A stretch of DNA of 64,000 bases from Cyanobium sp. (GTDB lineage Bacteria; Cyanobacteriota; Cyanobacteriia; PCC-6307; Cyanobiaceae), in contig JBBASH010000001.1 in the NCBI GenBank assembly GCA_040399305.1, forward strand, positions 52,592 through 116,591. Direction: 5' to 3'. Of this stretch, positions 35,901 through 64,000 are shown piece after piece. Every line of letters begins with the position of its first letter. Position 1 is the stretch's first letter. The notes under the pieces are model-generated. The model worked only from the letters and a program-made list of their open reading frames with translations, searched no databases and was not told where the DNA came from. Position numbers and translations under genes: made by a program.

Positions 35901-35917
35901 GGGTACGGATGCGGGGA

Positions 35918-37777: not shown

Positions 37778-37782
37778 GGCGA

Positions 37783-38229
37783 TCAAGGACGAAGGGCGGA
37801 GGCGGGGAAGGGTGGGGTCGTGGCTGGGGGGGATTGGCCCACAGGGCCGAGGGATGCCGTGGCGGTGCCGGGTTGCGGGAGGTGGTAGTCCACGCTGCTG
37901 ATCCGCAATTCACGGCCCTGCACGATCTCCTCCATCGGGTGCTCGCAGCAGGGGGAGCGGTAGCCCCTCTCCGGCTCGGGCGCATAGGTGGCAGAACAAC
38001 GAAGGCAGCGCCCCAGCAACGCCACCGGTTCAATCGCCAGTTCCGCCCCCTCAAGCCAGCTATTGCGAATCGCGGCCTGCCAGGTGAAGACCAATTGGTC
38101 GGGCTCCACGCAGGTGAAGGCGCCCACCTGGAGGTGGACGGTGCCAACCCGGGGTACCTGGGGTGTGTGGCTCTGCCTCCAGCCCTCCATCGCCAGGAGT
38201 AGGGCTCGGGTCATGTCGACTTCGTGCAT
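37783..38229 (-). CDS. ghaA: HypA-like nickel metallochaperone (GhaA-type accessory protein)
   Basis: N-terminal MHE nickel-binding motif ([11 protein letters not shown]). Zn-site CLRC, with the second motif appearing as PCCEH rather than CxxC. Pro-rich C-terminal tail. Confidence 0.78.
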
Positions 38230-38233
38230 CGCC

Positions 38234-39430
38234 CTACCTCCAGCGTTGATCGACCTGCATGTTGCAGACCGGATTCAGCCAGGCGGGAGTCTGGCGGCGC
38301 GGCAATTGGCCGCTCACCACCAGGTGGGCCATGGTGTCGCAGATCACGCGGGTGGCCATCAGCGAAGTCATGTCGCTGACGTCGTAGGGAGGGGAAACCT
38401 CCACCACCTCGAGGCCGCAGACCGGCACATTGCGCACGATCAATTCGAGCAACTTCAGCGCTTCACGGGGCAGAAGCCCCCCGGGTTCGGGCCAGCCGGT
38501 GCCGGGCACAAAGCCGGCGTCGATGCAATCGATATCGAAGGAGATGTACACGCAGTCGGTGCCATCGGTGGCCCGCTCGATCGCATAACGGGCCGCCGCC
38601 TCCAGGCCCATGTCACAGATGTCGGTCACGGTGAGCACGTTCGTGCCCCGCTCCCGGCAGATCTTCACCCCCTCCCGAGGCACCTGCCAGCCGCCGATGC
38701 CGAGCTGCACCAAGTTTTCGGCAGGGGCATTGGCCATGTTGGTGGCATGGAACCAAGGGGTGGTGTGCATGCGTTCATCCAGGTCGGTTTCCTGGGTGTC
38801 GACATGGCGATCAAAGTGGATGATGCCCACCTTCTTATCGCCCAAGTGGCGGCAGACACCGCGCAGGGTGGGAAAGCCGATCGAATGGTCGCCGCCGAGG
38901 ATGATCGGGAAGGCGCCGCTGGCGAAGACGTGCGCCACCCCCTTAGAGATCTGATCGAAGCTCTTTTCGTTGTTGGCCGGAATCGTGAAGATATCGCCGA
39001 TATCGCACAACTTGATCTGCTCCCGCAGATCGACACCCATCTCGTAGTTGTAAGGGGTATAGAGGGCTGAGATGCGGCGAATCCCCTGGGGACCGAAGCG
39101 GGTTCCAGGGCGGTAGGTGGTGCCGCTGTCGTGGGGAACGCCAAGAATGGCGACATCGAAATCGCCGACGCGATTCACATCCTCCACATAGGGAGCCTTC
39201 ATGAACGTGTTGATGCCCGCGTAGTGGGGCAACTCACCGCGGGAGAAGGTGGAGATGCGCCGATCCACAATGCTGTCGGCTGCCTCAAGGCCCAAACGCA
39301 ATCCCTGGTCGACCTCCTGCTGCCAGCCGGTGAGCGGCAGGCGCGACTCCTTCTCAAGGGCCCTCAGACCTTCACTGGGATGAACACGCTCAAACCCTTC
39401 CTCGGGGGAAGGTCCGGACACAGAAGCCAT
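38234..39430 (-). CDS. gdmH: Arginase/agmatinase-family hydrolase; candidate Ni-dependent guanidine hydrolase
   Basis: ATG at 39430, TAG stop at 38234. Ureohydrolase motifs GGDHSIGFP, IHFDRHVDT, SFDIDCIDAGFVPGTGWPEPGG. 398 aa with an N-terminal extension. Preceded by a guanidine-I riboswitch and followed by HypA/HypB-like genes. The family call is firm. Guanidine specificity is inferred from context. Confidence 0.75.
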   Translation of the reverse strand: MASVSGPSPEEGFERVHPSEGLRALEKESRLPLTGWQQEVDQGLRLGLEAADSIVDRRISTFSRGELPHYAGINTFMKAPYVEDVNRVGDFDVAILGVPHDSGTTYRPGTRFGPQGIRRISALYTPYNYEMGVDLREQIKLCDIGDIFTIPANNEKSFDQISKGVAHVFASGAFPIILGGDHSIGFPTLRGVCRHLGDKKVGIIHFDRHVDTQETDLDERMHTTPWFHATNMANAPAENLVQLGIGGWQVPREGVKICRERGTNVLTVTDICDMGLEAAARYAIERATDGTDCVYISFDIDCIDAGFVPGTGWPEPGGLLPREALKLLELIVRNVPVCGLEVVEVSPPYDVSDMTSLMATRVICDTMAHLVVSGQLPRRQTPAWLNPVCNMQVDQRWR

Positions 39431-39454
39431 GGAATCGGGGAGGTTGGTTGATCG

Positions 39455-39572
39455 CGGCCTCCCGGGCTTTTATCCCTCCGTGTCATGGACCCTGCCAGGC
39501 AGGAGCCATGGGATTTCTCTTGGACCTGACACCCCTGAACCTGGCGGCTTTGGGACCGGAACCCTAGAAATC
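39455..39572 (-). promoter_or_regulatory. Guanidine-I (ykkC) riboswitch aptamer
   Basis: The minus-strand RNA reads GAUUUCUAGGGUUCCGGUCCCAAAGCCGCCAGGUUCAGGGGUGUCAGGUCCAAGAGAAAUCCCAUGGCUCCUGCCUGGCAGGGUCCAUGACACGGAGGGAUAAAAGCCCGGGAGGCCG. It contains the three conserved ykkC blocks CUAGGGUUCCGG, GGUCC(A/G)AGAG and ACACGG.GGGAUAAAAGCCCGGGAG in the correct order and spacing, with a variable hairpin (CAUGG...CCAUG) between them. It ends 24 nt upstream of the ATG at 39430. Confidence 0.85.
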
Positions 39573-39679
39573 ATGTCCGCAAACCCATGGTGATGGGGGC
39601 GTTCGGGGAGCGTGGTACCAACCGCTACCGATGCCATGGCTCCGCCATCGACCTGCCTGGGTCCACACCTGGGGGCCCC

Positions 39680-49078: not shown

Positions 49079-51625
49079 GTGGAAGCCGCACTCACTGGGG
49101 TGGCCCTTGCCCTCACCCTGGCGTTCCTCCTGGAGAATCCGGCGCAGGCCGGGGAACGATCGGGGAAAGGAAAGGGGCGAAGCGAGGACCCCCTAGGGGA
49201 AGGACCCAGACCGGGTGGGGCGCCTGCTCCCCCGACACGAGGGTCGGCTGCTCTCCCGTTAGGAGGAGCGGACCCCGGGATCGACCGTGGTGGGACCACC
49301 GGGAGCGTTGCCGTCCCATCGGGGCCTACGGGCATCTACGGCGGCGCCGGGTGGGGATCCCTGGCGGCTAGTGGAGGGCTGGCGATGGGTTCGCCACCCC
49401 AAGCGCCCTGGCCCACCTCCGCTGGCCCGGCAGCATCGGAGTCCACGGGGCCGGGAGTCGTGGCCGGTAGAGCCAGCCCCTTGGCGACGGAAACGGGGTC
49501 AGAGCCCCCAACTGGCGAAGCCACCTCCACCGCCCTTCCGGCCGGGTTCCCCGATGCCGATCGGGGGGCTGGTCGCACCGCTCCAGTGGCGGAGAGCGCC
49601 GCTCCCAGGGCTTCGGCGGACGTGGGGGACGGCTCCACCCCGATGCCTGCTCACCAGAGTTTTCAGATCCTCATCGACCGGCGGGAGAGCGTGGTGGCCC
49701 GCAGCGTCGAAGGCCCGGCCCTCATGGTGTTCGACGCCAACCAGGTGGGCCTGCAGGGGGCACGGCTGGATCTCAGCCAGGCCCGGATCCCGGTGCTCAG
49801 CATCGACTCCCTGCGCCGGATCGAGGGGCTGGCGCTCTCTGTTCTGGGGACGGCGGAACTCCACCAGCGGAGCCTCAATCAGGCGGTCAGCGGCAGTGCG
49901 ATCGAGGGCAGTGCGGATGGAGGGAGCTACCGGATCCGGGCCTTGGATGTCCTGCTGCTCGGCCTGCGGGGGGGGCAGGGAGGTCTGATGGCGGTGGATG
50001 ACCAGGTCGAGGGTTTAAGGGAGAGCCTCCTGGCCGCTGACGGAGAGCAGAGCCAGACCAACGTGGAGATCGGGGCGGAACTGCAGCTGACCCTGGGAGG
50101 ATCCGCCGGATCCGGCACCCTGGAGGGGGAGCTCAACCTCACCAGCACGGCGGTGAACGGCTCCACGATTCGCCTCGGCGATGGTGCCGACAACGTGCGC
50201 ATCGCGAGCCGCATCAGCCGTGAAGAAGCACCCGACCCCTTCGCTTCCGCCCCTTCGGCCCCTGCCTGGGGCGCTGTGGCGGTGAACGGCAGGGCCGTGG
50301 GACTGCTGGATAGTCAGCTCAGCACAGGGGGCGGACCTGACCGGGTGACGATTGAGGCCGGGGCCGGGGCCCTTGAGGCGGTGGCCTTGGACAACTCCCT
50401 GGTCCAGCTGGGGGAGGGGGATGACAGCCTGCTGCTGCGGGGGGCCGTGATCGGTTCCCGCATCGAGCCGGGGGAGGGGCGCAATCGGGTGGAGGTGAGC
50501 GGAGCGGTCGACGACAGCGTGCTGGTGTTGAACCGGGGCGGTGACACCGGCATCACCCTCTCCGCAGCAGACGACAGCCTTGTGCTCGAAGGTGACGGGG
50601 GTGTCACGCTCCTGGCCGGCGGTGGCGATGACCGGATCCGAGTGGAGGGACGCGCGATCGGGCTGTTGGATGGCGGTGATGACCAGGACACGCTGGAGAT
50701 GGCCCGTTCCAGCCATGCAGGTTCGCCGGCTCCGATCGGGCCCCAGCAGTTGGAGCTGCAGGGCCTAAACCGTGGCCAGATCGATGGACTCACGTTCAGT
50801 TCCGTTGAGGCGATCCAGCTGAGCGATGGTGGCAACCATGTGGTGATCGACCCCCTCGGCAGCCTGGAGGGTCCGCTCTGGGGCGGAGCTGGTGCGGACA
50901 CCCTGGATTACGGCGCCTGGACGAGCGGTGTTTCGGTGGATCTGGACAGCGGCACCGCCGAGGCCATCGGTGGCGGTAGAGCGGGAGGGGCCCCAGGCTT
51001 CGACGGGGTCCTCGGCGGTCTGGGGGCCGACCATCTGGTGGGCGCGGCCGACACCCTCTGGCTCGATGGGGGTGCCGGTGACGACTGGCTTGAGTTCAAC
51101 CCAACGGACCGGATGGAGACGGGTGCCTCATTCCGGCTCACGGGTAGCGGCGGCCGCGACCTCTTCGTGCTGGCGGGCCTGGATCCCCTTCTGCTGGCCT
51201 CACCCGCCGCTGGGGGGTTTCCCGGATCCCCCCTACTCAGCGCGAGCATCCCATCACCTCGCCTGCTGCCCAGTCTGGAGGATCTGACGCTGGTGATCGG
51301 ACCGCGGGGGGAGCTGCAACTCAGTGACCGGCTGGGCTGGCGTGCCGGCGGCATCCTCGCGGCTGCCGATCCAGCCGCGAATGGCCTGGTGGAACTTCTG
51401 CCATCCGGGCTAGAGGGTCTGGGCCAAAGCCGCAGGCTGCCGATCGCCCCCCTGCCGGCCCTGCTGGCGGGCATCGGCACGGGGCCACCGCAGCTGGCCA
51501 TCGCCACCGATTCGGGAGCCAGCCAACTGGTGCTGCTCGGACCTGCCCGCCTCAGCGTGGAGCTAGCGCTCCTCCCAGCCTTCCATAGCCCCGTATCCTC
51601 AGCCGGCGCGCCGCTCCAATCCTGA
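49079..51625 (+). CDS. Large exported protein with degenerate Ca-binding (RTX-like GGxGxD / GxGDD) repeats
   Basis: GTG at 49079. Sec-like N-terminus ALTGVALALTLAFLLENPAQA. Pro/Gly/Ala-rich linker. Repeats LGDGADNVRI, GEGDDSLLLRG, GEGRNRVEVSG, GGGDDRIRVEG, GGAGADTLDYG, GGLGADHLVG, GGAGDDWLEF. Confidence 0.7.
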   Translation: MEAALTGVALALTLAFLLENPAQAGERSGKGKGRSEDPLGEGPRPGGAPAPPTRGSAALPLGGADPGIDRGGTTGSVAVPSGPTGIYGGAGWGSLAASGGLAMGSPPQAPWPTSAGPAASESTGPGVVAGRASPLATETGSEPPTGEATSTALPAGFPDADRGAGRTAPVAESAAPRASADVGDGSTPMPAHQSFQILIDRRESVVARSVEGPALMVFDANQVGLQGARLDLSQARIPVLSIDSLRRIEGLALSVLGTAELHQRSLNQAVSGSAIEGSADGGSYRIRALDVLLLGLRGGQGGLMAVDDQVEGLRESLLAADGEQSQTNVEIGAELQLTLGGSAGSGTLEGELNLTSTAVNGSTIRLGDGADNVRIASRISREEAPDPFASAPSAPAWGAVAVNGRAVGLLDSQLSTGGGPDRVTIEAGAGALEAVALDNSLVQLGEGDDSLLLRGAVIGSRIEPGEGRNRVEVSGAVDDSVLVLNRGGDTGITLSAADDSLVLEGDGGVTLLAGGGDDRIRVEGRAIGLLDGGDDQDTLEMARSSHAGSPAPIGPQQLELQGLNRGQIDGLTFSSVEAIQLSDGGNHVVIDPLGSLEGPLWGGAGADTLDYGAWTSGVSVDLDSGTAEAIGGGRAGGAPGFDGVLGGLGADHLVGAADTLWLDGGAGDDWLEFNPTDRMETGASFRLTGSGGRDLFVLAGLDPLLLASPAAGGFPGSPLLSASIPSPRLLPSLEDLTLVIGPRGELQLSDRLGWRAGGILAAADPAANGLVELLPSGLEGLGQSRRLPIAPLPALLAGIGTGPPQLAIATDSGASQLVLLGPARLSVELALLPAFHSPVSSAGAPLQS

Positions 51626-51638
51626 TCCTGGATTGGGC

Positions 51639-52931
51639 TCAGCGCATCGATCGGGTGGAGTCGAGGAATCCCCCGATCCGGTCGTAGATCAGGGCCAGCA
51701 ACGGCCGGGTGCCGAGCTGGATCAGGCCACTCACCGCCATCCCCGCCCTGAGGGGATAGGGGCGCCCCTGGTGGATCAAGGCCGAGCGATCGAGCCGCAC
51801 CACCGCCGGGAACATCTCCTGGTTCGTGCCTGGATCGGCCGGCAAGGCATCCGCACCAATGCGGGTGAGGGTGCCCCGCAGGGAGCCGTAGTCGGTGAAG
51901 GGGAGAGAGGTGATGCGCACATCCACGGGCATGCCGGGGGCGAGGAAGCCGATATCGCGGTTCGAGATGGCCAGTTCCACTTCCAGCGCCCGGCGGGGCA
52001 CGATGCGGAGCAACGGACGGGCTATCGCGAGTTCCCCCTCCTTGGCCTTCAGATCAAAGACCTCGCCGGCGACAGGGGCCAGGATCCGGCCCAGCTTCAG
52101 GCGGGACCGCAGCTGTTCCAGCCGCGTGCTGGTTTCCAGCAGCTGGCGGCGGGCTTCGTCGTATCGCTCGTAGAGCTGCCGGCGGTTGAGCGAGCCCACC
52201 TGCTCCAGGTTGAGCTCACTCTCGGCCAACCCGCGCTGGGCCGAGAGGATCTCCTGGCGGGTGCGGCGGATCGTGCCCTCGAGGTCCACCTGGCGCTCCT
52301 CCTGGCGATCGAGCTCCAGCCTGGAGATCGCCCCCTGGCGCACGAGTCCCTCCATGCGGCGATGAATGCCCTTATTGATTGCCTCCTTTCGCTCAAGAGC
52401 CTGAAGGTCGGAGATCTGCTGGCGCACGGTGGCCACGCTGCGCAGACGGCGCTGGTCGGCGGCACGACGGCGCAGGTCGGTGTCGTGCATCTGCTCCGCG
52501 AGTTCACGCCCATCCACCGCTAACGCCGGCAGACCCAGTTGTTGGGCCGCCTGGTTGGCATCCTTGCGCCACAGCTCGCGTAGGGCCAGCAGATCGCGAC
52601 TCTGGCGGCCGGCATCGAGTTCCTCCAGCTGCACCAGGGGTTGGCCGGCCCGCACGCTCTGCCCCTCGCGCACCAGCACCCTTCGGATCGGCGCCTGAAG
52701 CGGAGCACTGACATCGAAGCTGCCGCCCATCGGCCGGAGCTTGCCGGTGGCGGTCACGGAGCTGTCGATGCGGGCCACCCAGCCCACCACGGCTCCGAAG
52801 GCACTCAGCCCCGAGAGGCTCCAAATGATTGCCCGGCTCCAGCCGCGGGTGCTGCGGGGCAGGTGGGTGCGGCGCTGCGGTGGGGAGCCGGGAGGCCGTG
52901 GCGGCCTGGCGGGGTCGAAGACCTGGGTCAT
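51639..52931 (-). CDS. HlyD-family type I secretion membrane fusion protein
   Basis: ATG at 52931 overlaps the ABC exporter stop (ATGA). N-terminal TM segment, long coiled-coil, lipoyl/beta-barrel segments (GQPLVQLE..., ILAPVAGEVFDL, PGMPVDVRI). Confidence 0.9.
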   Translation of the reverse strand: MTQVFDPARPPRPPGSPPQRRTHLPRSTRGWSRAIIWSLSGLSAFGAVVGWVARIDSSVTATGKLRPMGGSFDVSAPLQAPIRRVLVREGQSVRAGQPLVQLEELDAGRQSRDLLALRELWRKDANQAAQQLGLPALAVDGRELAEQMHDTDLRRRAADQRRLRSVATVRQQISDLQALERKEAINKGIHRRMEGLVRQGAISRLELDRQEERQVDLEGTIRRTRQEILSAQRGLAESELNLEQVGSLNRRQLYERYDEARRQLLETSTRLEQLRSRLKLGRILAPVAGEVFDLKAKEGELAIARPLLRIVPRRALEVELAISNRDIGFLAPGMPVDVRITSLPFTDYGSLRGTLTRIGADALPADPGTNQEMFPAVVRLDRSALIHQGRPYPLRAGMAVSGLIQLGTRPLLALIYDRIGGFLDSTRSMR

Positions 52932-55900
52932 GACACCACCTCCAGGGCCTTCACGGGGGGCGCCTCCTCGGCGCTGCGGCCCTGCTGACGGAAGAGGGCG
53001 TAGTAGGCCCCCCGTCGCTGCATCAGCTCGTCATGGGTGCCCACCTCGAGAACGGCGCCGTTGCCCATGCAGACGATCCGGTCCGCCTGAACAATCGAGG
53101 AGAGGCGGTGGGTGATGAACAGCACCGTGCAACCCCGGAGCGCGGCCATCAGGTTTTCGCTCACCACCCGCTCCGTCTGGTAGTCGAGGGCGGAGGTGGC
53201 CTCATCCATGATCAACAGCCGCGGTTTCTGGAGGATCGTGCGGGCGATAGCGATCCGTTGCCGCTGGCCACCGGAGAGGCTGCTGCCCCGCTCGCCCACC
53301 TGGGTGGCGTAGCCGGCGGGGAGGGCCATGATGAAGTCATGGGCGGCGGCGATTCGCGCGGCTTCCACCATGTCCTCGGGGCTCGCCTCCGGATGGGTGA
53401 GGGTGATGTTCTCCTCGATCGAGCCGTCGAACAGCACGGTGTCCTGCGGCACGATGCCGATCTGGCGCCGCAGGGAATAGAGCTCCACCTTGCTGATGTC
53501 GATGCCATCGATCAGCACCATGCCCTGCTCGGGTTGGTAGAGACGGGCTACAAGTTTGGTGAGGGTGCTCTTGCCCGAGCCACTGGCCCCCACGATCGCC
53601 ACGAACTGCCCGCGGGGAATCGTGAGATCGAGGCCATGCAGCAGCAGCGGCGAGGAGGGTTGATAGCGGAATTGGATCGCCCGGAATTCGATCTCCCCCT
53701 CGATCGGTGGCATCACCATGCGGGTGGCGTTATCGGCGGCTGCCTCCTGGGGGTTGTCGATCACATCGCTCAGACGCTCCAGAGAAAGGGCGGTTTCCTG
53801 CACGGATTGCCAGATGGAGGTCATGCGCAGCAGGGGGCCGGTGACGTAGCCGGCGATGATGCGGAAGGCGATCAGTTCGCCCAAGCTCAGGGAACCTTGA
53901 AGCACCAGGGCGGCGCCGGCCCAGATCACGATCAATCCGGAAAGCTTGTTGAGAAAGCTGCTGATTGAGCCGGCTGTGGTGGAGAGAAGCGTGTTGTCGA
54001 AACCCTCGGCCACATAATCGCTATAGAGGTCCTGCCACTTCCAACGGCAGCGCAGTTCGATGTTCTGGGCTTTCACGGTCATCATGCTGCTCAACACTTC
54101 CACCAGGTGGCTCTGGGTGCGGGCATTGGCCACGGCCCGGCTCTGGAGCTGGTCCCGCACGATCGGCGACACCGAGAGCGTGAGCAGCACCAGCACCGGG
54201 ATCACCGCCAGGGTGAAGAGGGTGAGCTGCCAGCTGTAGATCAGCATGACCACGATATACAGAACTGCAAAGATGGCATCAAGAATGGTGGTGAGGGCCG
54301 TGCCCGTGAGAAAACCCCTCACCTTCTCCAATTCACCGATGCGGCTGCTCACCTCGCCCACCGAACGACGATCGAAGTAACTGAGCGGTAGCCGCAGCAG
54401 ATGGTCGATGATCTGGGTGCCGAGGGCTAGATCGATGCGATTGGTCGTATCCACGAACAGAAAGGTGCGTAGGCAGAGCAGCAGACCCTCGAACAGGGCA
54501 AAGACCACTAGCAACAGGCCCAAAATCCCCAGAGCCGAAGGGCTGTTATTGATGATCACCTTGTCGATCACCTGCTGAATCAGCAGCGGATTGACAAGAC
54601 CAAAAAGTTGCACGAAGAAGCTCGCCAGCAACACCTCCAGCAGCACCGCCCGGTGTTGGCGCAGGGCCGGGGCGAACCAACTGAAGCCGAAGCGCCGCCT
54701 CGGGGTCAGGTCATTGACCCGCAGGCTGAGCACCTCCCCTGCGTCGCCCCACTGCTCCCGGAAGGCCTCCAGGGTTAACTCCTGGTTGCCCACCGCAGGG
54801 ATCCCCACCACGAGATGGCGCCGGTCGCTGCGATAGATCACGGCCAATCCGTTGCCCCAGCGAATCAGCAGGGGGGGGCTGAGCTGCACCAAGGCCTCGG
54901 CGCGCAGCTCCAGCAGCTGGGTCTGCAGGCCGATCGATTCGGCCAAGGCACCGGCCAGGGCCAGGGAGGCCTGGCCATGCCGCGTCACCTGCTCACCGAT
55001 CACCCGCCGCAGCAGGTCGCGGCGGAAGGGAAGCCCAAGGTGATCGCTGATCATCCGGAACGCCGCCACGGGTGATTCCAGCGGTCCCACCCCCTTCACC
55101 CAGGGAAAGGCCTCGGGTCCCTGACGCTCCTGATCCGGCGGTTCCGGCGGCAGGGCCGGATCGATCGGTGTGGCGGCGGTGATTGCGGCCGGATCGAGGG
55201 CCTGTCGCTGTTGCTCCCAGTTCGCCAGCAGCTTCGACTGCCAGCCGTTCCCCGCGGCCTCACCCCCCACGGGTATAGCCGGTTCGAGGATCGCCTCAAG
55301 CCTTTGGCGATCGATACCGAGCAACCGCACCGGTTGGGGCAACGTGATCGGTTCATTGGGCAGCAGGCTGCCGATCGGCAACGGCCCGCCCGCCACGAGC
55401 CAGAGCCGCTCCCCATCCGGGGCAATCCCATTGCCGCCTTCGGGCCCCGGGGTGCGCACCAGGCAGCCGTCGGCCAGTTGGTTGGCCGCCTCCAGCACCT
55501 CCTCGCCGACTGGGCGCGGATACTCCCTGAGATAGGCATCCAGCACCCCGAACAGCTCCGCCGCCGTGACGCTCTGCCGCACCCGTGCGGCGAGATCCGG
55601 CCGGTCCGCGATCTCCTGGTGCAGCGCGTCCCAGGGAATCGCCACCACCACGATGTTGGAGGAAGCGAGCAGGGTTTCCCAGCAGCGTCCGCAACTCACC
55701 AGGCTCCAGCCCAGCACCGAGCCGGGCTGGAGGCGCTGCAGGGTGGCCACACCCCGCGGCAGACGGGACGAAAACACCACGGATCGCACCGTTCCTTCCA
55801 CCAAAAGGTGGAGCTGCTCCGGGGGCTGATCGGTGCGGCAGATCGGCTGTCCCTGCTGGAAGCTCTGCAGCTGGGCCCTGGACGAAAGGCGCAGCAGCAG

Positions 55901-55972
55901 ATCCTCCGGTTGGTCGGCCAGGAAGGGGAAGCAGCGCAGCAGCTCCTCGATCCGTGTGGTGGTGGTGGCCAT
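52928..55972 (-). CDS. Type I secretion ABC exporter with N-terminal cyclic-nucleotide-binding-like domains and a degenerate C39-like domain
   Basis: 1014 aa. N-terminal cNMP-domain-like FPFLADQPEDLLLRLSSRAQLQSFQQGQPICRTDQPPEQLHLLVEGTVR. The C39-like segment (FPWVKGVGPLESPVAAFRMISDHLGLPF...LIRWGNGLAVIY) contains no Cys at all. Six-TM exporter domain. Walker A GASGSGKST, signature LSGGQRQRIAIAR, Walker B LLIMDEATS. Confidence 0.92.
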   Translation of the reverse strand: MATTTTRIEELLRCFPFLADQPEDLLLRLSSRAQLQSFQQGQPICRTDQPPEQLHLLVEGTVRSVVFSSRLPRGVATLQRLQPGSVLGWSLVSCGRCWETLLASSNIVVVAIPWDALHQEIADRPDLAARVRQSVTAAELFGVLDAYLREYPRPVGEEVLEAANQLADGCLVRTPGPEGGNGIAPDGERLWLVAGGPLPIGSLLPNEPITLPQPVRLLGIDRQRLEAILEPAIPVGGEAAGNGWQSKLLANWEQQRQALDPAAITAATPIDPALPPEPPDQERQGPEAFPWVKGVGPLESPVAAFRMISDHLGLPFRRDLLRRVIGEQVTRHGQASLALAGALAESIGLQTQLLELRAEALVQLSPPLLIRWGNGLAVIYRSDRRHLVVGIPAVGNQELTLEAFREQWGDAGEVLSLRVNDLTPRRRFGFSWFAPALRQHRAVLLEVLLASFFVQLFGLVNPLLIQQVIDKVIINNSPSALGILGLLLVVFALFEGLLLCLRTFLFVDTTNRIDLALGTQIIDHLLRLPLSYFDRRSVGEVSSRIGELEKVRGFLTGTALTTILDAIFAVLYIVVMLIYSWQLTLFTLAVIPVLVLLTLSVSPIVRDQLQSRAVANARTQSHLVEVLSSMMTVKAQNIELRCRWKWQDLYSDYVAEGFDNTLLSTTAGSISSFLNKLSGLIVIWAGAALVLQGSLSLGELIAFRIIAGYVTGPLLRMTSIWQSVQETALSLERLSDVIDNPQEAAADNATRMVMPPIEGEIEFRAIQFRYQPSSPLLLHGLDLTIPRGQFVAIVGASGSGKSTLTKLVARLYQPEQGMVLIDGIDISKVELYSLRRQIGIVPQDTVLFDGSIEENITLTHPEASPEDMVEAARIAAAHDFIMALPAGYATQVGERGSSLSGGQRQRIAIARTILQKPRLLIMDEATSALDYQTERVVSENLMAALRGCTVLFITHRLSSIVQADRIVCMGNGAVLEVGTHDELMQRRGAYYALFRQQGRSAEEAPPVKALEVVS

Positions 55973-55975
55973 GGC

Positions 55976-56779
55976 TCAACCTCCCGCCATCACGAGGGAA
56001 GCGGGTTGCAGCTCGGCAACGGGAGCAAGGGTGCCTGCCAGGGCCGCCAGGCCGGTTTCGATCAAGGCCTGCAGATCAGGCTGCAAAAGCTCTTGGATCA
56101 GCCTGCTGCGCAGAGCATCGGTGAGACAGGCAGGACAGCGGTGCTCAAGCCGCACCAACACGATGGCGTTGTCCAGCAGAAAGGGGGGGTGGCAATCCCC
56201 TTCCGCCAGGGTGCGGAGCACAGTTCGCAGACTGTTGTGCAGCTGGCCGATCTCAATCGGTCCGACAATGCCCCGGGTCATCCGCTCATCACCGAGCGAA
56301 TGGCCACGGGCGAGATCGCCGAAGCTGACCTGGTCGTCGACCAGCCTGAGATAGAACTCCTCGGCCAAGCCGCGCTGGGGCAAGCGCATCAGGCGGAAGA
56401 CCACCTGCTCCAGATCATCGCGGCGATCGAGGAAATGAGCTTCAACCCGCTCGCCGTACTGATCATCCAGGGCCTTCTCCAGCAGGAGATGGTTCCAGCG
56501 TTGCTTCACCGTCTCGCGGCATGGCTCCGGCAGGGTGCCGATCCAATCGCCCTCGGGGCTGGCAGGGGCTTCAAAGGGGAGTCCAGCGCAGACCTGCGCG
56601 AGCATCTCCAGCCCCTCCCCAGGGCTCAAATGCACCCCCTGGCGTAATCCGTTGAAGGCCAGGTCCCTGGCCAGGTTCTGCAGGATGCCCTGCTGCTGGA
56701 GGAGCTGATGGAAGGGAAGGCCGGCCATCGCGTCCACGGCACGGAGCAGATCGTCGTGAAGTGGAGGAAGTGAAAGCAT
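55976..56779 (-). CDS. Parvulin-like peptidyl-prolyl isomerase domain protein, no signal peptide
   Basis: ATG at 56779. The C-terminal half fits the PpiC pattern: FRLMRLPQRGLAEEFYLRLVDDQVSFGDLARGHSLGDERMTRGIVGPIEIGQLHNSLRTVLRTLAEGDCHPPFLLDNAIVLVRLE. Lies 3 nt upstream of the ABC exporter. Confidence 0.65.
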   Translation of the reverse strand: MLSLPPLHDDLLRAVDAMAGLPFHQLLQQQGILQNLARDLAFNGLRQGVHLSPGEGLEMLAQVCAGLPFEAPASPEGDWIGTLPEPCRETVKQRWNHLLLEKALDDQYGERVEAHFLDRRDDLEQVVFRLMRLPQRGLAEEFYLRLVDDQVSFGDLARGHSLGDERMTRGIVGPIEIGQLHNSLRTVLRTLAEGDCHPPFLLDNAIVLVRLEHRCPACLTDALRSRLIQELLQPDLQALIETGLAALAGTLAPVAELQPASLVMAGG

Positions 56780-56825
56780 GGGTGAAGGGAGAAATCAGGC
56801 CAATTGGGATGCAATCGTGATCACT

Positions 56826-58952
56826 TCAGCTTCCACTTCCGAACTGAATATTCGACTTGGTTAGCAAGCCTGGATTGTCCATATTCAGCGTTCCGATGCT
56901 CTGACTGCCGCCGCTCTTCCAGTCCCCATCCGCATCGAACATCAGCTGGCGGGTGTCGGTGGCATAGGCAAGCGAGGGGGCGCCGATTCCCAGTGTGCGG
57001 ATCTCCCCCAGACTTCCCACCACCAAGCCGATCTGGCTGTTCTGGGGGCCATCGCGCACCACGAGCTGGCCGCCCTGGACCCCAAACAGGGCCCCCTGGG
57101 TCTCCCAGAGGTTTTGAGTGAGTGAACCAAGCGAACCGCTGAGATCAAAAATGTCACCGCGGGCGGCATCAAAATTGCTGAAGGTGTCCTCTTGGAACGT
57201 TTGGGAGCCGATCACCAGGGTGCCGGTCTGCCAGAGCGCCTGTTTCTGCTGGTCTGCCAGGCCCGCCCAGAAATTCAGATCGGTGAGGCGTTCCGCAAAG
57301 GAGCTGCCCGGCAGCGCGCCCGGGCTCGGGCTGGCGGCATCCAACGCCGCGCCGGCATTGGACTGAATAAAGGTGGTCTGCATCGCCGTGCCGCCGTGCA
57401 CTAGGTCCTGGCCGTAGCCGCCGTCGAGCCGGTTGCGCTCACCGCTGGCCACCTGCACCGTGTCGTTGCCGAAGCCGCCGCGGAAGCTGGTGTCCAACGC
57501 CAGGTCGCTCACCTTCACGGTGTCGTTGCCGAAGCCGCCCTCCAGGCTTGACGTGCGGGCCAGATCCAGCTGGATCAGGTCGTTGCCGCTGCCGGCATCG
57601 ATCGCGCTGCCACTGGAGGAGCCGAAGACCCCGTCGTTGCCGGTTCCGGTGTTGATGACGCTGTTGCGGATCCCATCGAAGCCGCCCTGGCCGCCCGTCA
57701 ACGCCGAGGCATCGAGGAAGACGTTGGCCGCTATCACCCCATCACCGTTGGCATCCACCCCGGCTAGTTGCTCGGTGTAGATGCTGCCGATCACCGTGTC
57801 ATTGCCTGACCCGGTGAGGATTGTGGAGCGATCGATGCCCGCCGCATCCATGGCCGGCAGCAGCCCACCGCTGTTCGCTGCCGCAAAGCCCCCTCCACCA
57901 ACCACGGTGGCATCGCCACCGTTGCTCTGGATGTCACTGCGGGCGATACCAATCCCCTGCAGGCTTTGCAGATTCAGGGATCCCGGTGGCAACAAGGCTG
58001 GCGTGTTGAGCAAGGCCAAGCCCGCCCCCTGAATCAGCACGGGCCCACTGCCAGGCCCCCGTACCTCGCTGCGATCGATGCCGATCGCCGTCGCACTGAG
58101 GTCGGCGGACTGGGCTGGGGTGGGGGGAGCACCGACCAGGTCGAGGCTGGCGGTGGCGATGCCGGCCACGAGTGCGGGGGTTCCAGGCGTTGCAGCGAGC
58201 CCCGGTGCCAGGGCAAAAACCCTGTAGCCCTCGATCCCCTTGGCATCAGCCACGGCGCGGGCCTCGGTGGCCGTGGGTCCGGGATCCAGGTTGAGCGTGG
58301 CGGCGGCTCTCACCGCGGCACTGGGCTGGCCATAGAAGGTGGGCAGGCTCGCGAACCCCTGGGGGGCGGCGATGCCCACAAGGGTGGACGGTTCTATCCG
58401 CAGGGTGGCGGGATCCACGGGGGCGGCGCCTTCCAATCCCCTCACGGTGGCGAGGGCCGAGAGTTGGGCTGTGAGCAGCGGGATGGCCTGGGGGGTCAGC
58501 AACGAACGGCTCGCCGCTGTGGCGCTCGCCGACAGCGGTGCCGCCGTGGTGCCGATCTGCAGAACAGCACCACCGCGGCTGATGACATCCAGATTGGCCA
58601 GGCCGACGTTGGTCGCCGTGGCCTCGGCCGTGTTGACGTTGCGGCCGGTGGTGTTGGCCGTGGCAGCGGCCGAGCCGGCGATCGATCCGCCGCCGGTCAC
58701 CACCGAAAGCCCGGGGCTGCTGAAGAACGCTGCGTTGCCCGGACCGGAAAGAAAGCGGCTATTGCCGAGTCCTAGCCCTAGGGCGGTGGCGATCGAGCCG
58801 ATCGGCTGCAGGGCCGACTCGATCACCCGGTTACTGGCCTGGGCGCTGGGGGCAATGGTGAGCTGAAGACCACCGCCGAGGTACGTGGTGCCCTGGTCGA
58901 GTTGCAGGGCCACCGCCCGCGACAGGGCGGTGGTGATGGGCTGGAACTCCAT
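56826..58952 (-). CDS. RTX-type Ca-binding repeat protein (type I secretion substrate candidate)
   Basis: ATG at 58952 (listed start 59006 is TTG). No signal peptide. Ala/Gly/Ser/Thr-rich N-terminal half. Nonapeptide-type repeats GSGNDTVIG, GTGNDGVFG, GSGNDLIQL, GGFGNDTVKV, GGFGNDTVQV, GGYGQDLVHGG. A 20-nt exact DNA repeat GTGTCGTTGCCGAAGCCGCC occurs at 57460-57479 and 57520-57539. Confidence 0.85.
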   Translation of the reverse strand: MEFQPITTALSRAVALQLDQGTTYLGGGLQLTIAPSAQASNRVIESALQPIGSIATALGLGLGNSRFLSGPGNAAFFSSPGLSVVTGGGSIAGSAAATANTTGRNVNTAEATATNVGLANLDVISRGGAVLQIGTTAAPLSASATAASRSLLTPQAIPLLTAQLSALATVRGLEGAAPVDPATLRIEPSTLVGIAAPQGFASLPTFYGQPSAAVRAAATLNLDPGPTATEARAVADAKGIEGYRVFALAPGLAATPGTPALVAGIATASLDLVGAPPTPAQSADLSATAIGIDRSEVRGPGSGPVLIQGAGLALLNTPALLPPGSLNLQSLQGIGIARSDIQSNGGDATVVGGGGFAAANSGGLLPAMDAAGIDRSTILTGSGNDTVIGSIYTEQLAGVDANGDGVIAANVFLDASALTGGQGGFDGIRNSVINTGTGNDGVFGSSSGSAIDAGSGNDLIQLDLARTSSLEGGFGNDTVKVSDLALDTSFRGGFGNDTVQVASGERNRLDGGYGQDLVHGGTAMQTTFIQSNAGAALDAASPSPGALPGSSFAERLTDLNFWAGLADQQKQALWQTGTLVIGSQTFQEDTFSNFDAARGDIFDLSGSLGSLTQNLWETQGALFGVQGGQLVVRDGPQNSQIGLVVGSLGEIRTLGIGAPSLAYATDTRQLMFDADGDWKSGGSQSIGTLNMDNPGLLTKSNIQFGSGS

Positions 58953-59045
58953 GGCGAGCAACAGGCGGAGGGATCGGAACAAAAGGGAGGAAAGGGGCCG
59001 GATCAAACGATCCGGCCCCCGTTTGTGAACATCGACTCAGCGATG

Positions 59046-61715
59046 TCAGACCGTCACGGTCGAGGCGGTGGCGATGTTGTTGCTCACTGCCGAGGCCGTG
59101 ATGTTGCCGCTCTGGAGAATGTTCACGTTGTATCCACTCAGGCCCACCGCATCGCCAAAGGCGTTGGCGGTGGCCGAACCGGTGATGGTGGTGGCCAGCA
59201 CGGTGTTGCTCAGGATTGCCGAGGCCGTGAGGTTGCCGTCCAACTTGGCGGAGTTGTCGCTCCCCAGCAGACCGGCCACAGACACGGTGGAGGTGCCGAA
59301 GGCATCACCGGTGACGGAGGTCGCCTTGGTGGAGTAGGTGCCCTGGCCGTTGGCCGTGAGGGAGCTGGCCTTCAGGTCAACGTCTTGGATACCGGCAACG
59401 AAGGCATTGGTGGTGCCTCCAGCGAAGCCGGTGATCGCATTGGCCGCGCCGGTGGCGCTGCCGTTGCCCGTGCCGGTGATGGTGCCCGACAGGCCGGAAC
59501 CGATCGAGCTGCCATCACCTTCGCCACCCTCGCCGCCCTTGATCCCCACGGCGTTCTGATACACCGTGAATCTGGAATCACCGGTGGTGGTGGTCGCCAG
59601 CACCGAGGGAGCCGTGGCGGTACCGCTGCCGGTGGTGTTGCCGGTCGTGCCGATTTTGATCGGGTCGCCGCCGCCCAAGTCGATGCCAATGGCCGCGAGA
59701 GTGGAGGTACCGGTGGCATCCCCCGTTACCGCAGACGCCAGGGTGCCGAGGTCGGCAGCCGTGGCCGTGCCGGTCACGTTGCCGGCTTGACCGATGGCGA
59801 TCGTCACGTTGTTGTTGATGCCCTTGGCCACCAGATCGGTGAGAGCCGTGGAGTCTCCGGTGGTGGTGGAGGCCGACGCCTTGCCGGTTAGGCCGGCCGT
59901 TCCTCCCACATTGCCGTTGGTGCCGATAGCAATCTCGCTGTTGTTGATGCCGAGAGCTTTCTGCAGGGCTTTAGCAGAGGAATCCCCCGTCACGGAGAGC
60001 GCCGTGGCGGCCACAGTGCCGGTGGCGGATGCGGCCACGTTGCCCGATCCCCCAACCGAGACAGGGGCTTCGTTAAGGCCGACAATCATGGACGATCCAC
60101 CGGCCTGAGCATTGGTGACTCCGGTGGTTGCCACCGCACCAGCTGCGAGATCGGAGGTGCCGTTAGCAGCAAACGTGCCCGGGCCGACTCCATTAACGAT
60201 GTTCTGGCCAATGGCAAGGCTTCCCTGGTTGAAGCCCACCACGCTCGAGCCTGCACCAGCCAGGGCCGTGCTGCCGGTGGACGTGGTGACGCCGGTGGCG
60301 GTGGCCGTGGCACTGAGAACAGCTTCCGCCACGGGACTGGTGGCGTTCTTGCCCACCGTCACTTTGGTGTCGTAGACACCGAAGACCTTGTCACCATTGG
60401 CCGCAAAGGCACTGGGATCGCCACCAGAGGTTGTGCTCTGGGCCGTGGCCGTCTGGGTGCTACCGGCGCCGGCATAGAGGCGCGTCGCGTTCTCGCCAAT
60501 GGCGAGCTTGTCAATGGCGATGCCCACCACATTGCTGTTATTGGTGGTGGCCGAAACATCTTTGCCGTCAGGCGAGGTCACAGCGGTGGCCTTGGCCGCT
60601 GCGGTGCCGACACCGGCAGCCTGAATGTCGCCGTCCTTGCCGGTCGTGAGGGTGGTGGGGGCGCCGCCGCTAATGCCACCGAGCTTGTTGACATCAACGA
60701 TGCCGCCGATTGTCTGAATCGCCACGTTGGCGCTAGCAGGGCCCGTGGTGGTGTTGGAGGTGGCGGTCGCGTCGGCCTTGCCCTGGGCGGCCACGGTGCC
60801 GGTCTCGCCGAAGCTGATGGCCAGGCCACCAGGCGTCACCACTTCAGACTGCTGAACGTTGGCTCCTGTGCCGTTGCCAGACACCAGCTGCACGTTGGCT
60901 CCCGTGGCGATGCCAGCCACCAGGTTGGCCAGGCTGCTGGCATTGACCGGACCGGTGACGCTGCTGGCCGTGGAATTGAATCCGCCGGTACCGAAGCCCT
61001 GAAGCGTGGCGCTGTTGCCGAAGGAGATCTGCAGGCCGCCGGTCGGGGCCACCGTTACAGCGGCAGCATCGGCTGAAGGCTGCGCGGGAGGGAGCTGGGC
61101 GCCGCTGGCGTAGATGCCCACGACCTTGGCATCGGAACGCCCGGCGGTGGCTGAAGACCCATCGCTGTTGGTGGGCAGGCCGATCGACTGGGCGGTCGCC
61201 GTGTTGTTGCCGGTGGCGCTGGCCGTCAGGCTCGTGCCGTTGCCAGCCTTCAGGCCCACGTCCTGAAGACCGAAGACCTTCCCGGTGTCGGCCCAAGCGG
61301 TGGAGAAGCCATCCACGCTGGTGGCGGCTGCCGTTGCGCTGTTGGTGGCCGACGTCGTCACCACCGCATCGGTGCCGATCGTGATCTGAGTCGGAACGCT
61401 GAGGCTGTTGATGATGCCGCCGGTGGGTCCGTCGTTACTGGCGCTGGCCGTTGCGTTACCGGTGGTGGTGGTGGCTGTGGCCCCAACCGTGCCGGTTTCG
61501 GTGGCATTGAGGGTGGCGAACGTGCCGATGCTGATCGGGCTGTTCAAGATGGCGGCCTGGGCCGTGGTGTTTGCCTTGGCATCGACGGCGCCCGAGACCG
61601 CCGTGTCGCTGGCGGGAGTCGTGGATGCGGCACTAGCCGTCAGAGTTGTGCTGGTGCCGACGTTGATATTGGAGGTGTCAATACCGACAGTGCGGCTGGT
61701 GTTGGTGGCTGACAT
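59046..61715 (-). CDS. Thr/Ala/Gly/Ser-rich beta-strand repeat surface protein (889 aa), first gene of the T1SS operon
   Basis: ATG at 61715. No Cys, no signal peptide, no GGxGxD repeats. Quasi-repeats of about 40-45 aa, of the type ...TGD(A/S)xAxx...GI..N..IAIG..GNVTGTA... Many N-x-S/T sites. Ends ...NITASAVSNNIATASTVTV. Confidence 0.8.
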   Translation of the reverse strand: MSATNTSRTVGIDTSNINVGTSTTLTASAASTTPASDTAVSGAVDAKANTTAQAAILNSPISIGTFATLNATETGTVGATATTTTGNATASASNDGPTGGIINSLSVPTQITIGTDAVVTTSATNSATAAATSVDGFSTAWADTGKVFGLQDVGLKAGNGTSLTASATGNNTATAQSIGLPTNSDGSSATAGRSDAKVVGIYASGAQLPPAQPSADAAAVTVAPTGGLQISFGNSATLQGFGTGGFNSTASSVTGPVNASSLANLVAGIATGANVQLVSGNGTGANVQQSEVVTPGGLAISFGETGTVAAQGKADATATSNTTTGPASANVAIQTIGGIVDVNKLGGISGGAPTTLTTGKDGDIQAAGVGTAAAKATAVTSPDGKDVSATTNNSNVVGIAIDKLAIGENATRLYAGAGSTQTATAQSTTSGGDPSAFAANGDKVFGVYDTKVTVGKNATSPVAEAVLSATATATGVTTSTGSTALAGAGSSVVGFNQGSLAIGQNIVNGVGPGTFAANGTSDLAAGAVATTGVTNAQAGGSSMIVGLNEAPVSVGGSGNVAASATGTVAATALSVTGDSSAKALQKALGINNSEIAIGTNGNVGGTAGLTGKASASTTTGDSTALTDLVAKGINNNVTIAIGQAGNVTGTATAADLGTLASAVTGDATGTSTLAAIGIDLGGGDPIKIGTTGNTTGSGTATAPSVLATTTTGDSRFTVYQNAVGIKGGEGGEGDGSSIGSGLSGTITGTGNGSATGAANAITGFAGGTTNAFVAGIQDVDLKASSLTANGQGTYSTKATSVTGDAFGTSTVSVAGLLGSDNSAKLDGNLTASAILSNTVLATTITGSATANAFGDAVGLSGYNVNILQSGNITASAVSNNIATASTVTV

Positions 61716-62367
61716 GGCTGGGGGAGATTCAGGAAGAACAACGGAGGTGGGCGGGGTTGGTGCCTGCAATGCCCCTTCACTTCCATGTGAAACCTATTGA
61801 CGGAATTCCGATTCCATCCGTTCTTGCTATGGCAAACTGGGACCACATTGGCGTTAAATCTGCAGCAATCTGCCTACCTACATGGCAACACTTTGCCTAC
61901 ACATGTTGCCCAAGCCTGCGGAATTCCTCTACGTGGCGCTGATTCGCACCACGTTGCTGCAGCCTTGAAGAACAAATCATCGGCACTTCCTATGTCATCG
62001 CCGTAATCTCGCAATCGTGATCTAAGCATTCCCCCAGGCCCTTTCCGGCTTGCCGGTTCCTACCCTGCCGCTTCAGCCAGAGAAGCCGGCCTGGCATGGC
62101 CGAACACATCGGACGGGCCTGAAAACCGGCCAGTTGTCTTAAAGCGTCCGGATTGGAACCTTGGCAAGGGCTAAGCGCAACCTGAGAGCCGGCCGCAAAC
62201 GCAAGCGATGCACCGATGCGCATACGCACAAAGCAGCAGCAATGCCACGCAATAACTGCAGGATGCGATGATCAAAAGGTTACCGGCGCCACAAAATCAG
62301 CACTCTGTCCGAACTCACCGATGCCGTTTCCCTCAAAAAGGATGGGAGCCGGGTTTCGCTTGAAGGC

Positions 62368-64000
62368 GTGCTGACGGGTGCTGCGTTCGGAATCGTGTTC
62401 CTGTACCTCCTCGATGCGGGTCAGGAGGCCCTTGCTGGGCAGCGCCGCCGGCCAACGGGCCCCGTGATCCTTGGGGATGACGGGGGGTTGGGGCCGTTTC
62501 GAACCTCGGTGGGTCGGATCCCGATCGCGCCCTTAGGAGAAGTGGAGGTGGGGCAGCCGGGCCGACCGGCACCCAACCCCGAAACGGGGGGGGGCAACCA
62601 ACCCCGGCAGACGGGCGGATCTGGGGATGGACTCGCTCCGGCGCCCCAGCGGCCGATTGGGCTAGCCCAGAATCCATCTCCCGGTTACGGAGGCTCTGGA
62701 GGTTTCGAGGGACTGCCGATTCAACAACCGTCGGGGTCGGGGAGAGGCCTCGCTGCCAAACAGATTGGGCCGACCGATCCCGGCACCGGAAGGGAAACAG
62801 CGCCAGACGACGCACTGGAACCTGTGGGGCTGCCGCAGTTGCTGTTGGTGCTGGTGCGGGTCAACTCCCAGAGCAACGCAATCAGTGTGGAAGGGAAAGC
62901 GATCAGCCAAAGCCTGATCGAACAGCATGCCGTGGCCGATAGTGTCGTGGATATGCGCTATCAAGACGTGCCAGGTTTTGAGATGCGCAGTGAATTAAAT
63001 TTACCAGGATTCGCCAATTCACGCCTCTCCGATGCTGATCTGCAGGTGATCTCGCAGAACGTGGGGATCGTGAACAGCAAGGTTCTTGGCGGAACGGCCA
63101 GCGAGCTGCTGGTGATTGGCGTGCAGGATCTTCTATCCCTTGTGGTAGTGACACCCAAATCCGGATCGGCATCAATCAACAGCCGCACCACTGGCTCGGA
63201 CCAAAGCACGTTCGATATGGGTGATGGGGCTAACGTGCTGGATGTGGAAGCCCTGCAACGGCTTAGCTTCACGGCGATAGGACTGCCGGATCAAGCGCAG
63301 TTAAGTTTTAACCTCTTAACCGAGGGGCTGAAATCAAGCTTTGTCAAGATGGGTGTAGGCAGTGACAGCCTGTTGATTAATAGCGGTTGGTATGGCGGAA
63401 ATCTGCCAGAAGACACCCCACTGTTTCTGAAACGTCAAGATCTCGGTCTCAGCCTCGATCTCACGCAACTGAGTGGGATGGCAAATAACTCTGACCTGAG
63501 AAATGTTTCCCTGAATGCCACAGCAATCGGCATGGATGCAAGCGCTGTGGATCTTGGTGGCGGTAATAACTACATGGCAATCAACACCCGTATCGATCAG
63601 GATCTCAGCAATCAGCTCGGCCTGCTCGGACCAGGTGGCACCAGCCAGGTGGAGCTCGATCGAATCGGCATGCGCGATTCCAGCATCCGCATGGGTAGCG
63701 GCGACGATACCTTGATCGTGAATGGAAGAATCCTGAACTCAACCATCGATCTTGGTGCTGGTCGCAATAGGCTGCTGCTTGAAATGGCACCTGACGATCG
63801 CAGCACAGTTGTGAATGGGAGCGGCAGCAACGAGATCACTGTCGCCAATATTGTGGGCAGTGCGTTGCAGGCTGGATCAGGAAATGACACGCTTAATCTT
63901 AGCGACTCCCAAGCCTATGGATCGTTTGATGGAGGTGAAGGGGATAACAGCCTGATCTCAGCCTCCGGTTCGGGATCCAAGCGGGATGTGGTGACCGTGA
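62368..64000 (+). CDS. Large repeat protein with GxG(D/N)D Ca-binding-like motifs; 3' end beyond the window, start uncertain
   Basis: Not in the ORF track (no stop before 64000). Frame 1 is open from the TGA at 62269-62271 to the window end. My translation: ...VLTGAAFGIVFLYLLDAG..., then a Gly/Pro-rich tract (GQPGRPAPNPETGGGNQPRQTGGSGDG...), then ...MGSGDDTLIVNGRILNSTIDLGAGRNRLLLE...AGSGNDTLNLSD...DGGEGDNSLISASGSG. The first canonical in-frame start is GTG 62368. The first in-frame ATG is at 62953. Confidence 0.6.
   Translation, partial: MLTGAAFGIVFLYLLDAGQEALAGQRRRPTGPVILGDDGGLGPFRTSVGRIPIAPLGEVEVGQPGRPAPNPETGGGNQPRQTGGSGDGLAPAPQRPIGLAQNPSPGYGGSGGFEGLPIQQPSGSGRGLAAKQIGPTDPGTGRETAPDDALEPVGLPQLLLVLVRVNSQSNAISVEGKAISQSLIEQHAVADSVVDMRYQDVPGFEMRSELNLPGFANSRLSDADLQVISQNVGIVNSKVLGGTASELLVIGVQDLLSLVVVTPKSGSASINSRTTGSDQSTFDMGDGANVLDVEALQRLSFTAIGLPDQAQLSFNLLTEGLKSSFVKMGVGSDSLLINSGWYGGNLPEDTPLFLKRQDLGLSLDLTQLSGMANNSDLRNVSLNATAIGMDASAVDLGGGNNYMAINTRIDQDLSNQLGLLGPGGTSQVELDRIGMRDSSIRMGSGDDTLIVNGRILNSTIDLGAGRNRLLLEMAPDDRSTVVNGSGSNEITVANIVGSALQAGSGNDTLNLSDSQAYGSFDGGEGDNSLISASGSGSKRDVVTV

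Follow-up and report, generated by a model that had tools for sequence, protein, structure and literature searches.

We analysed a window of 64,000 nucleotides (nt) of Cyanobium sp. (contig JBBASH010000001.1, assembly GCA_040399305.1, positions 52,592-116,591), in which five consecutive genes on the minus strand probably encode both a type I secretion system and, adjacent to it, the cargo that it exports, a reading to which we assign a probability of about 0.7. In their 5' to 3' order, the genes are rep889 (889 amino acids (aa), 59046..61715), encoding the putative main cargo or surface structural protein; rtx708 (708 aa, 56826..58952), encoding a putative second cargo or surface partner of rep889; ppi267 (267 aa, 55976..56779), whose product is a presumably cytoplasmic protein resembling SurA and PrsA; a type I secretion ATP-binding cassette (ABC) exporter gene (1014 aa, 52928..55972); and a gene for a membrane fusion protein, or periplasmic adaptor, of the HlyD family (430 aa, 51639..52931). 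The first two genes are separated by 93 nt, rtx708 and ppi267 by 46 nt, and ppi267 and the ABC gene by 3 nt, while the ABC and HlyD genes overlap by 4 nt. An open reading frame (ORF) check reproduced the coordinates and gaps given in a preliminary description of this DNA, which had also called the two large proteins giant; at 889 and 708 aa they are large, not giant.

The ABC protein combines a cNMP_binding domain (residues 36-122), a C39-like domain (298-409), six transmembrane (TM) helices (445-714) and a nucleotide-binding domain (778-927). In Pfam it matches ABC_membrane (E = 2.1e-51), ABC_tran (E = 1.5e-34) and, weakly, Peptidase_C39 (27.1 bits); its best NCBIfam model is type_I_sec_HlyB (TIGR01846, 699 bits), and its best sequence match in the PDB is E. 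coli HlyB (530 bits), in agreement with the HlyB-like character first noted for it. An alignment with the peptidase domain of ComA places Ser300 at the catalytic Cys17 and Ala377 at the catalytic His96, and the same Ser and Ala occupy these positions in 34 of the 34 related loci that we collected. The C39-like domain is thus predicted to be non-catalytic, which is a hallmark of HlyB-type exporters of large proteins and not of double-glycine peptide exporters, and because it lacks both residues the exporter is not expected to cleave double-glycine leaders. The neighboring protein had been described as HlyD, and it indeed matches HlyD_3 (E = 2.8e-20) and TIGR01843 (178 bits) and has one TM helix at residues 34-53. 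The locus therefore presents the features of a HlyB/HlyD-type system, namely a HlyB-related six-TM ABC exporter, a C39-like domain without the catalytic Cys, and an adjoining HlyD-family gene. No TolC/OEP-like protein was found among the window ORFs of at least 450 aa, all of which were scanned, as the preliminary description had also reported.

In composition, both large proteins resemble type I cargo, and RTX proteins in particular: they are acidic (pI about 4.3), contain 0 Cys each, and hydropathy analysis revealed no signal-peptide-like or TM-like segment in either; the preliminary description had already noted the lack of Cys and of a signal peptide. In rep889 (pI 4.25), Thr, Ala, Gly and Ser make up 59% of the residues, and periodicity analysis gives a weak signal only, at about 45-50 residues, so that its repeats are loose. 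Its homologues are few and are either unnamed or annotated as 'beta strand repeat-containing protein'; among them is a 902-aa protein of C. gracile PCC 6307 with 66% identity, and tblastn located orthologues with 74-77% identity at three other loci (L008, L017, L029). The exact rep889 protein is absent from a collection of 5.8 billion proteins, in which the best match is 63% identical.

Evidence on the role of rep889 comes from a paralogous system, hereafter system 2, which has neither a rep gene nor rtx708 and which encodes a ppi protein (ppi2) and an ABC protein that are 43-46% and 63-72% identical, respectively, to those of the window. Directly upstream of ppi2 lies a giant Cys-free ORF (>1900 to >3300 aa) with 14-33 GxGxD motifs, and for this reason we regard the slot upstream of ppi as the cargo slot in both systems. 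Over its last 330 residues, rep889 is homologous to the very C-terminal end of these giant RTX-type proteins, with residues 560-888 aligning to residues 1938-2297 of a 2302-aa system-2 giant (E = 1.7e-10). Since this is the region where type I signals lie, rep889 is likely to be cargo; the C-terminal homology, taken together with the shared slot, is the best in-silico support for that status, which we infer from sequence comparison.

Across Cyanobium and freshwater Synechococcus, members of the rtx708 family are conserved from end to end, with identities as low as about 42%, and are annotated as 'hypothetical' or 'calcium-binding protein'; the cluster-member names of more distant relatives are 'hypothetical' or 'Ca2+-binding RTX toxin-like protein'. 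The protein contains 3 strict GGxGxD and 6 GxGxD motifs spaced 18-20 residues apart, within an RTX-like, putatively Ca-binding block at about residues 380-520, and what follows the repeats resembles the C-terminal pattern common in RTX proteins. A profile of the family also picks up the RTX R-module of AlgE4 (E = 2.9e-4). An exhaustive search of 1.84 billion proteins with this profile returned about 30 full-length family representatives, along with >900 giant proteins that match the RTX-like block only, many times each. In the AlphaFold (AF2) model (predicted local distance difference test score, pLDDT, 86.9; predicted template-modelling score, pTM, 0.88), a continuous beta-solenoid (residues 1-530) is followed by a conserved alpha/beta C-terminal domain (533-708). 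The beta-solenoid fold of rtx708, with its short RTX block, is therefore a confident prediction. Among solved structures, the nearest is 3p4g, the Ca-dependent beta-helix of the MpAFP/RTX adhesin. No S-layer (surface-layer) protein such as RsaA is found among the Foldseek matches of rtx708 in the PDB, and thus the structural comparison gives no support for an S-layer assignment.

The preliminary description had called the 267-aa protein parvulin-like, and its fold bears this out. The Pfam Rotamase match (PF00639) of ppi267 scores 21.1 bits, slightly below the cutoff of 21.7, yet several orthologues pass it and carry the NCBI name peptidylprolyl isomerase. An AlphaFold (AF2) model built from 21 family members (pLDDT 84) contains helices, a beta-alpha-alpha-beta-alpha-beta-beta domain and a long C-terminal helix, that is, a chaperone module of N- and C-terminal helices with a single parvulin-fold insert at about residues 125-215. 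Foldseek matches the model to SurA (E = 1.8e-8) and to several PrsA structures and PEB4/Cj1289 (E = 1.8e-8 to 1e-5), all of which share this arrangement, and it matches the inserted domain by itself to Pin1 with a root-mean-square deviation of about 2-2.6 A. SurA, PrsA and PEB4 all act outside the cytoplasm. By contrast, hydropathy analysis found no hydrophobic N-terminus in ppi267 or in its marine homologue, and neither has a signal peptide or anchor; ppi267 should therefore be cytoplasmic, unlike all of its structural analogues. It also appears to differ from them at the catalytic positions, since low-identity pairwise alignments to Par10 and Pin1 have Gly163 where Cys or Asp is expected and Val in place of the C-terminal (second) His. 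Prolyl isomerisation is thus probably not catalysed by ppi267 and, with catalysis doubtful, a role as a holdase or targeting factor seems more likely.

Because long ORFs can occur by chance in DNA of 64-70% GC, as found in this region, we tested the coding status of the genes by comparison with L001, a near-identical metagenome contig (99.6% identical over the same region). In the rep889 frame, synonymous and non-synonymous differences stand at 8:1, while the two alternative frames give 1:8 and 0:9, and in the ABC gene they stand at 8:0. The GC content of third codon positions (GC3) is 0.75-0.85 across all five minus-strand genes; rep889 is atypical for the window in its first and second positions (GC1/GC2 = 0.56/0.62). 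These patterns indicate that the five genes are real and not chance ORFs, and they bear the signature expected of purifying selection. The ATG at 61715 is backed as the rep889 start by the alignment of orthologues, although the frame is open upstream to a TTG at 61769, and the rtx708 start (ATG at 58952) is backed by the family alignment. Automatic gene callers skip rep889: on L001 (4240-6927), the calls made in its place consist of small ORFs on the antisense strand and a fragment of 79 aa. The only segment of rep889 that does not align with L001 is a Gly-rich stretch at about residues 750-796 (59327-59464, minus strand), where the net length difference is 36 nt and thus in frame; a 24-nt tandem repeat is found at 59440-59486. 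This stretch may represent a hypervariable surface loop.

The order of the genes is conserved well beyond this strain. A scan for the ppi267 family with one genome per species returned 30 loci; about 20 genomes of Cyanobium and Synechococcus, counted at species level, share the order rep, rtx708, ppi, ABC, HlyD, in a synteny comparison of the kind that the preliminary description had put forward. In C. gracile PCC 6307 the same five genes occur in the same order and are followed by a convergent 893-aa gene and ribBA, as in the window. A marine contig of 42% GC (L037) carries a rep-like gene, an rtx708-like gene, a rotamase gene, an ABC gene with cNMP and C39-like domains, and a HlyD gene, again in this order, and therefore the arrangement reaches beyond freshwater strains. 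All 30 loci belong to the Cyanobium/Synechococcus clade, save two with titles naming other taxa. These two (L032 and L036) have a typical Cyanobium-type gene order and come from metagenome-assembled genomes titled 'Pseudanabaena sp.' and 'Asaia bogorensis', the latter an alphaproteobacterium, which suggests mis-binned contigs or mislabelled records.

The gap between rep889 and rtx708 contains a terminator-like element (58976..59020, minus strand), recognized by folding of the gap. It consists of a 12-bp GC-rich stem with a 4-nt loop (59020-58993) and a U-rich tail, and the fold of 59020-58976 has an energy of -34.2 kcal/mol (z = -3.05). A GC hairpin occurs at the same position in about 20 loci, often with clear U-tracts. 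The stem is near-invariant in close relatives, so that covariation is not demonstrable within the close clade, whereas distant relatives have different stems and obvious U-tracts; for this reason the argument rests on conserved position. A standard terminator scan missed the hairpin of the window, whose tail has too few T residues. Upstream of rep889, the intergenic region of 650 nt (61716..62367) that separates it from the divergent gene up816 has a lower GC content and is presumed to hold the rep889 promoter and 5' leader. A simple sigma-70 promoter scan found no site there. In 10 genomes, conserved blocks precede the rep starts (window 61716-62015, minus strand), including a near-palindromic GCAGATCTGCTGCA-like motif and a CAATGGTGATAGGA-like motif, and these blocks could be an operator and a promoter.

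The preliminary description had treated the five genes as a single operon. However, a conserved hairpin follows rep889, and hence the locus is probably not one plain five-gene operon. From the layout of the sequence, rep889 is probably its own transcription unit with read-through into a tightly packed unit of rtx708, ppi267, ABC and HlyD. A strong rep transcript with read-through, which we consider the likeliest arrangement, is more in line with a major structural protein than a plain operon of five genes would be.

To account for these observations, we propose that the ABC and HlyD proteins form the inner-membrane and periplasmic parts of a translocator, which would dock on a TolC-like channel encoded elsewhere. 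The C39-like domain would probably hold large unfolded substrates that are exported C-terminus first, as that of HlyB does. The N-terminal cNMP-type domain would probably gate export on a small nucleotide, comparable to the domain of HetC that binds ppGpp (PMC10986499). As a non-catalytic holdase or targeting factor, ppi267 would keep the cargo unfolded in the low-Ca cytoplasm. The cargo would be rep889 and probably rtx708, which outside the cell would become beta-helical, partly Ca-dependent surface structures. The terminator or attenuator after rep889 would let the cell produce far more of this protein than of the machinery, in keeping with a major structural protein of the surface; the S-layer protein of Caulobacter is made in large excess (PMC3034196). 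An S-layer role for the locus is plausible.

Several observations weigh against the interpretation of the locus as a secretion system with adjacent cargo. Export of rep889 and rtx708 by this machine is itself deduced from sequence. Of the two large proteins, only rtx708 carries RTX-like motifs; rep889 has 0 RTX motifs, and sequence searches of Pfam, NCBIfam and the PDB left it without a match. Even rtx708 has no Pfam HemolysinCabind match at E <= 10, and its structural matches in the PDB are weak, with the best Foldseek match, 3p4g, at E = 3.9e-3. The exporter and adaptor scores lie slightly below the curated NCBIfam cutoffs (725.6 bits for TIGR01846 and 208.7 bits for TIGR01843), and the chaperone role and loss of catalysis proposed for ppi267 rest on a model and on low-identity alignments. 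In Cyanobium sp. M30B3 (L004, CP073761, 5230-22136), a 1546-aa rep-like gene and a 711-aa rtx708 homologue lead into a gene for a 4756-aa HemolysinCabind protein, with no exporter within 10 kb; two cargo sets may have merged into one locus in this strain. Finally, the gene most constantly linked to the transporter is not rep or rtx708 but the convergent gene of the down848 family, and the primary cargo could thus be a different one.

This convergent gene shows that the locus is larger than the five genes first described, all of which are present. The gene down848 (848 aa, 49079..51625, plus strand), recognized as an ORF and by synteny, faces the HlyD gene, and the two stop codons are 13 nt apart (51625-51639), which leaves no room for separate terminators; no stable RNA structure was found between the stops (z = -0.17). 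Its product is Cys-free and acidic; a hydrophobic anchor at the N-terminus and a linker rich in Pro and Gly precede an RTX-like beta-roll region, 8 GxGxD motifs are present, and the protein matches MpAFP and the beta-roll of the serralysin PrtC (E = 0.003). At the other end of the locus, the 5' part of a paralogue, up816, occupies 62368..64000 (plus strand) and the gene runs past the window end. The two proteins are 28% identical over 724 aa, and in their family the GxGxD repeats are followed by a serralysin-like post-repeat region, and an N-terminal hydrophobic segment is conserved and in many orthologues preceded by a basic tail; for down848, the conserved TM motif in this segment is L(T/S)GxALxLxxLYL. 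The full up816 gene is found on L001 (1191-3641), where it is convergent with a gene for a second HlyD (1-1125) that is 46% identical to the 430-aa HlyD of the window. In other genomes, system-2 loci carry up816 orthologues (40-86% identical), and the convergent gene of system 2 is closer to up816 than to down848. By this comparison the strain's own system 2, a second ppi-ABC-HlyD set, lies just beyond the window end and abuts it.

The down848/up816 family may represent another cargo, a tether or an accessory protein. The ABC-HlyD pair could even have its real dedicated substrate or partner in this family, with rep889 and rtx708 as accessory proteins that share the locus in one lineage, although we consider this unlikely. 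A ppi, ABC and HlyD set with a convergent down848 homologue is present in every mapped locus that extends far enough, including the system-2 loci that lack rep and rtx708, and down848 has the most canonical RTX block of the locus as well as the serralysin-like region that follows it. However, a conserved N-terminal hydrophobic anchor, often after a basic tail, is unusual for a freely secreted type I substrate, and the marine locus L037 has rtx708, ppi, ABC and HlyD without a convergent down848-like gene. Such a role for down848 and the export of rep889 and rtx708 as cargo are compatible and not mutually exclusive. On a further and tentative reading, the picocyanobacterial group I module, as this type of cluster is called, might be a specialised surface-layer assembly system and not a peptide exporter, in which ppi267 would be a dedicated non-catalytic cytoplasmic type I chaperone or targeting factor and the down848-type protein a tether that remains threaded through or beside the translocator and anchors a layer of rep889 and rtx708 to the cell. 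To our knowledge, a dedicated cytoplasmic chaperone or targeting role for a protein of the SurA/PrsA fold is not established for any type I system.

A non-flagellar motility apparatus similar to that of SwmA and SwmB is more doubtful again, and nothing in our analysis was found to favor it. No strain of the Cyanobium clade is known to swim. No homologue match carried the name SwmA, in a comparison of names, and rep889 has no RTX repeats; the description of SwmA, by contrast, is of a protein rich in glycine and aspartate. What speaks for motility is analogy only, in that a protein of S-layer size adjoins a system with a giant repeat protein and in that marine Synechococcus WH8102 swims with the RTX-like S-layer protein SwmA and the giant SwmB; cyanobacterial RTX S-layer and motility proteins have been reviewed (PMC3034196). 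A literature search on SYNW0193/0194 and on Cyanobium S-layer genes returned nothing usable.

The least probable alternative, and a very remote one, is that the locus exports and processes small double-glycine (GG)-leader peptides with the large proteins as unrelated neighbors: a rotamase, a CAP_ED-C39-ABC protein and HlyD are exactly the architecture of the 'group I bacteriocin gene cluster', which was described with its long-type ABC protein from nearly all cyanobacteria (Wang et al. 2011, PMC3140520), and the relatives HetC and PteB are catalytic peptidase-type exporters (PMC10986499, PMC4997328), but the closest solved relative of the ABC protein is HlyB and not a bacteriocin exporter, and large Cys-free repeat proteins fill the upstream slot in both paralogous systems. 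Double-glycine peptide export was rejected on the loss of the C39 Cys and His at all the loci collected and on a simple motif scan, which found no convincing small GG-leader ORF near the locus.

Among known systems, the group I cluster of Wang et al. (2011) has an identical three-gene module and an identical domain order in its ABC protein. This ABC architecture recurs in HetC, which is a true peptidase and whose cNMP-type domain is functional (PMC10986499), and PteB exports small GG-motif proteins (PMC4997328); in both, the catalytic Cys and His are retained and the substrates are small peptides with a GG leader, whereas the domain in the window is degenerate and its neighbors are large proteins predicted to be beta-helical. 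With the HlyB-HlyD-TolC system of E. coli and the RsaA-RsaD-RsaE system of Caulobacter, the window shares a non-catalytic C39-like domain on the ABC protein, a cargo gene (here a candidate) upstream of those for the ABC and membrane fusion proteins, and an acidic Cys-free cargo with a C-terminal signal region, which here is putative. Relative to HlyB and RsaD, it adds the cNMP-type domain, the SurA-like protein predicted to be cytoplasmic, two candidate cargos, of which one has no RTX repeats, and a convergent gene for an anchored RTX-like protein.

The preliminary description had pointed to a Synechocystis system in which Sll1180 and Sll1181 export an S-layer protein, and this system is real; the title of Agarwal et al. 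2018, as cited in PMC7727718, names Sll1951 as the exported protein. In Synechocystis PCC 6803, as presumably at the locus in the window, an ABC and HlyD pair (the HlyB-like Sll1180 and the HlyD-like Sll1181) has its TolC partner encoded elsewhere, and for both systems the proposed substrate is a large, acidic surface protein poor in Cys. The presumed cargos differ, since Sll1951 is a protein of 1741 aa with many RTX repeats (PMC3034196), while the window encodes 889 aa without RTX repeats and 708 aa with a short block. One 'group I' long-type exporter cluster is listed for Synechocystis (PMC3140520). In function, the system of the window most resembles the HlyB, RsaD and Sll1180 type.

Hence, the transporter belongs to a type known from cyanobacteria, and what is uncharacterised is the cargo proteins alone; the SurA-like protein predicted to be cytoplasmic, the regulatory domain and the RTX partner with its anchor are under-studied features. 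Picocyanobacteria of fresh and marine waters rank among the most abundant phototrophs. How they are grazed, how phages attach to them, and how they aggregate and nucleate minerals is governed by their cell surface, yet their surface-layer genes are mostly unknown. For the Cyanobium clade, the locus provides two conserved and unannotated candidates for major surface proteins, one of which is routinely missed by gene callers, along with the exporter that most likely serves both. Our results suggest that at least the picocyanobacterial members of the 'group I bacteriocin' clusters are HlyB-type exporters of large proteins, and they raise the question of whether a cytoplasmic SurA-like protein acts as a type I secretion chaperone.

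Elsewhere in the window, a Guanidine-I riboswitch (RF00442, 73.7 bits) is located at 39457-39578, directly upstream of a run of minus-strand genes (34313-39578). This run includes an arginase-family gene (38234-39430), a small ORF, a gene for a CobW/HypB/UreG-type GTPase (37034-37786) and one for an NMT1-type binding protein (35918-37018), followed by genes for an ABC permease and an ABC ATPase, and it looks like a guanidine-responsive operon that would encode a guanidine hydrolase, a metal-insertion factor and an importer.

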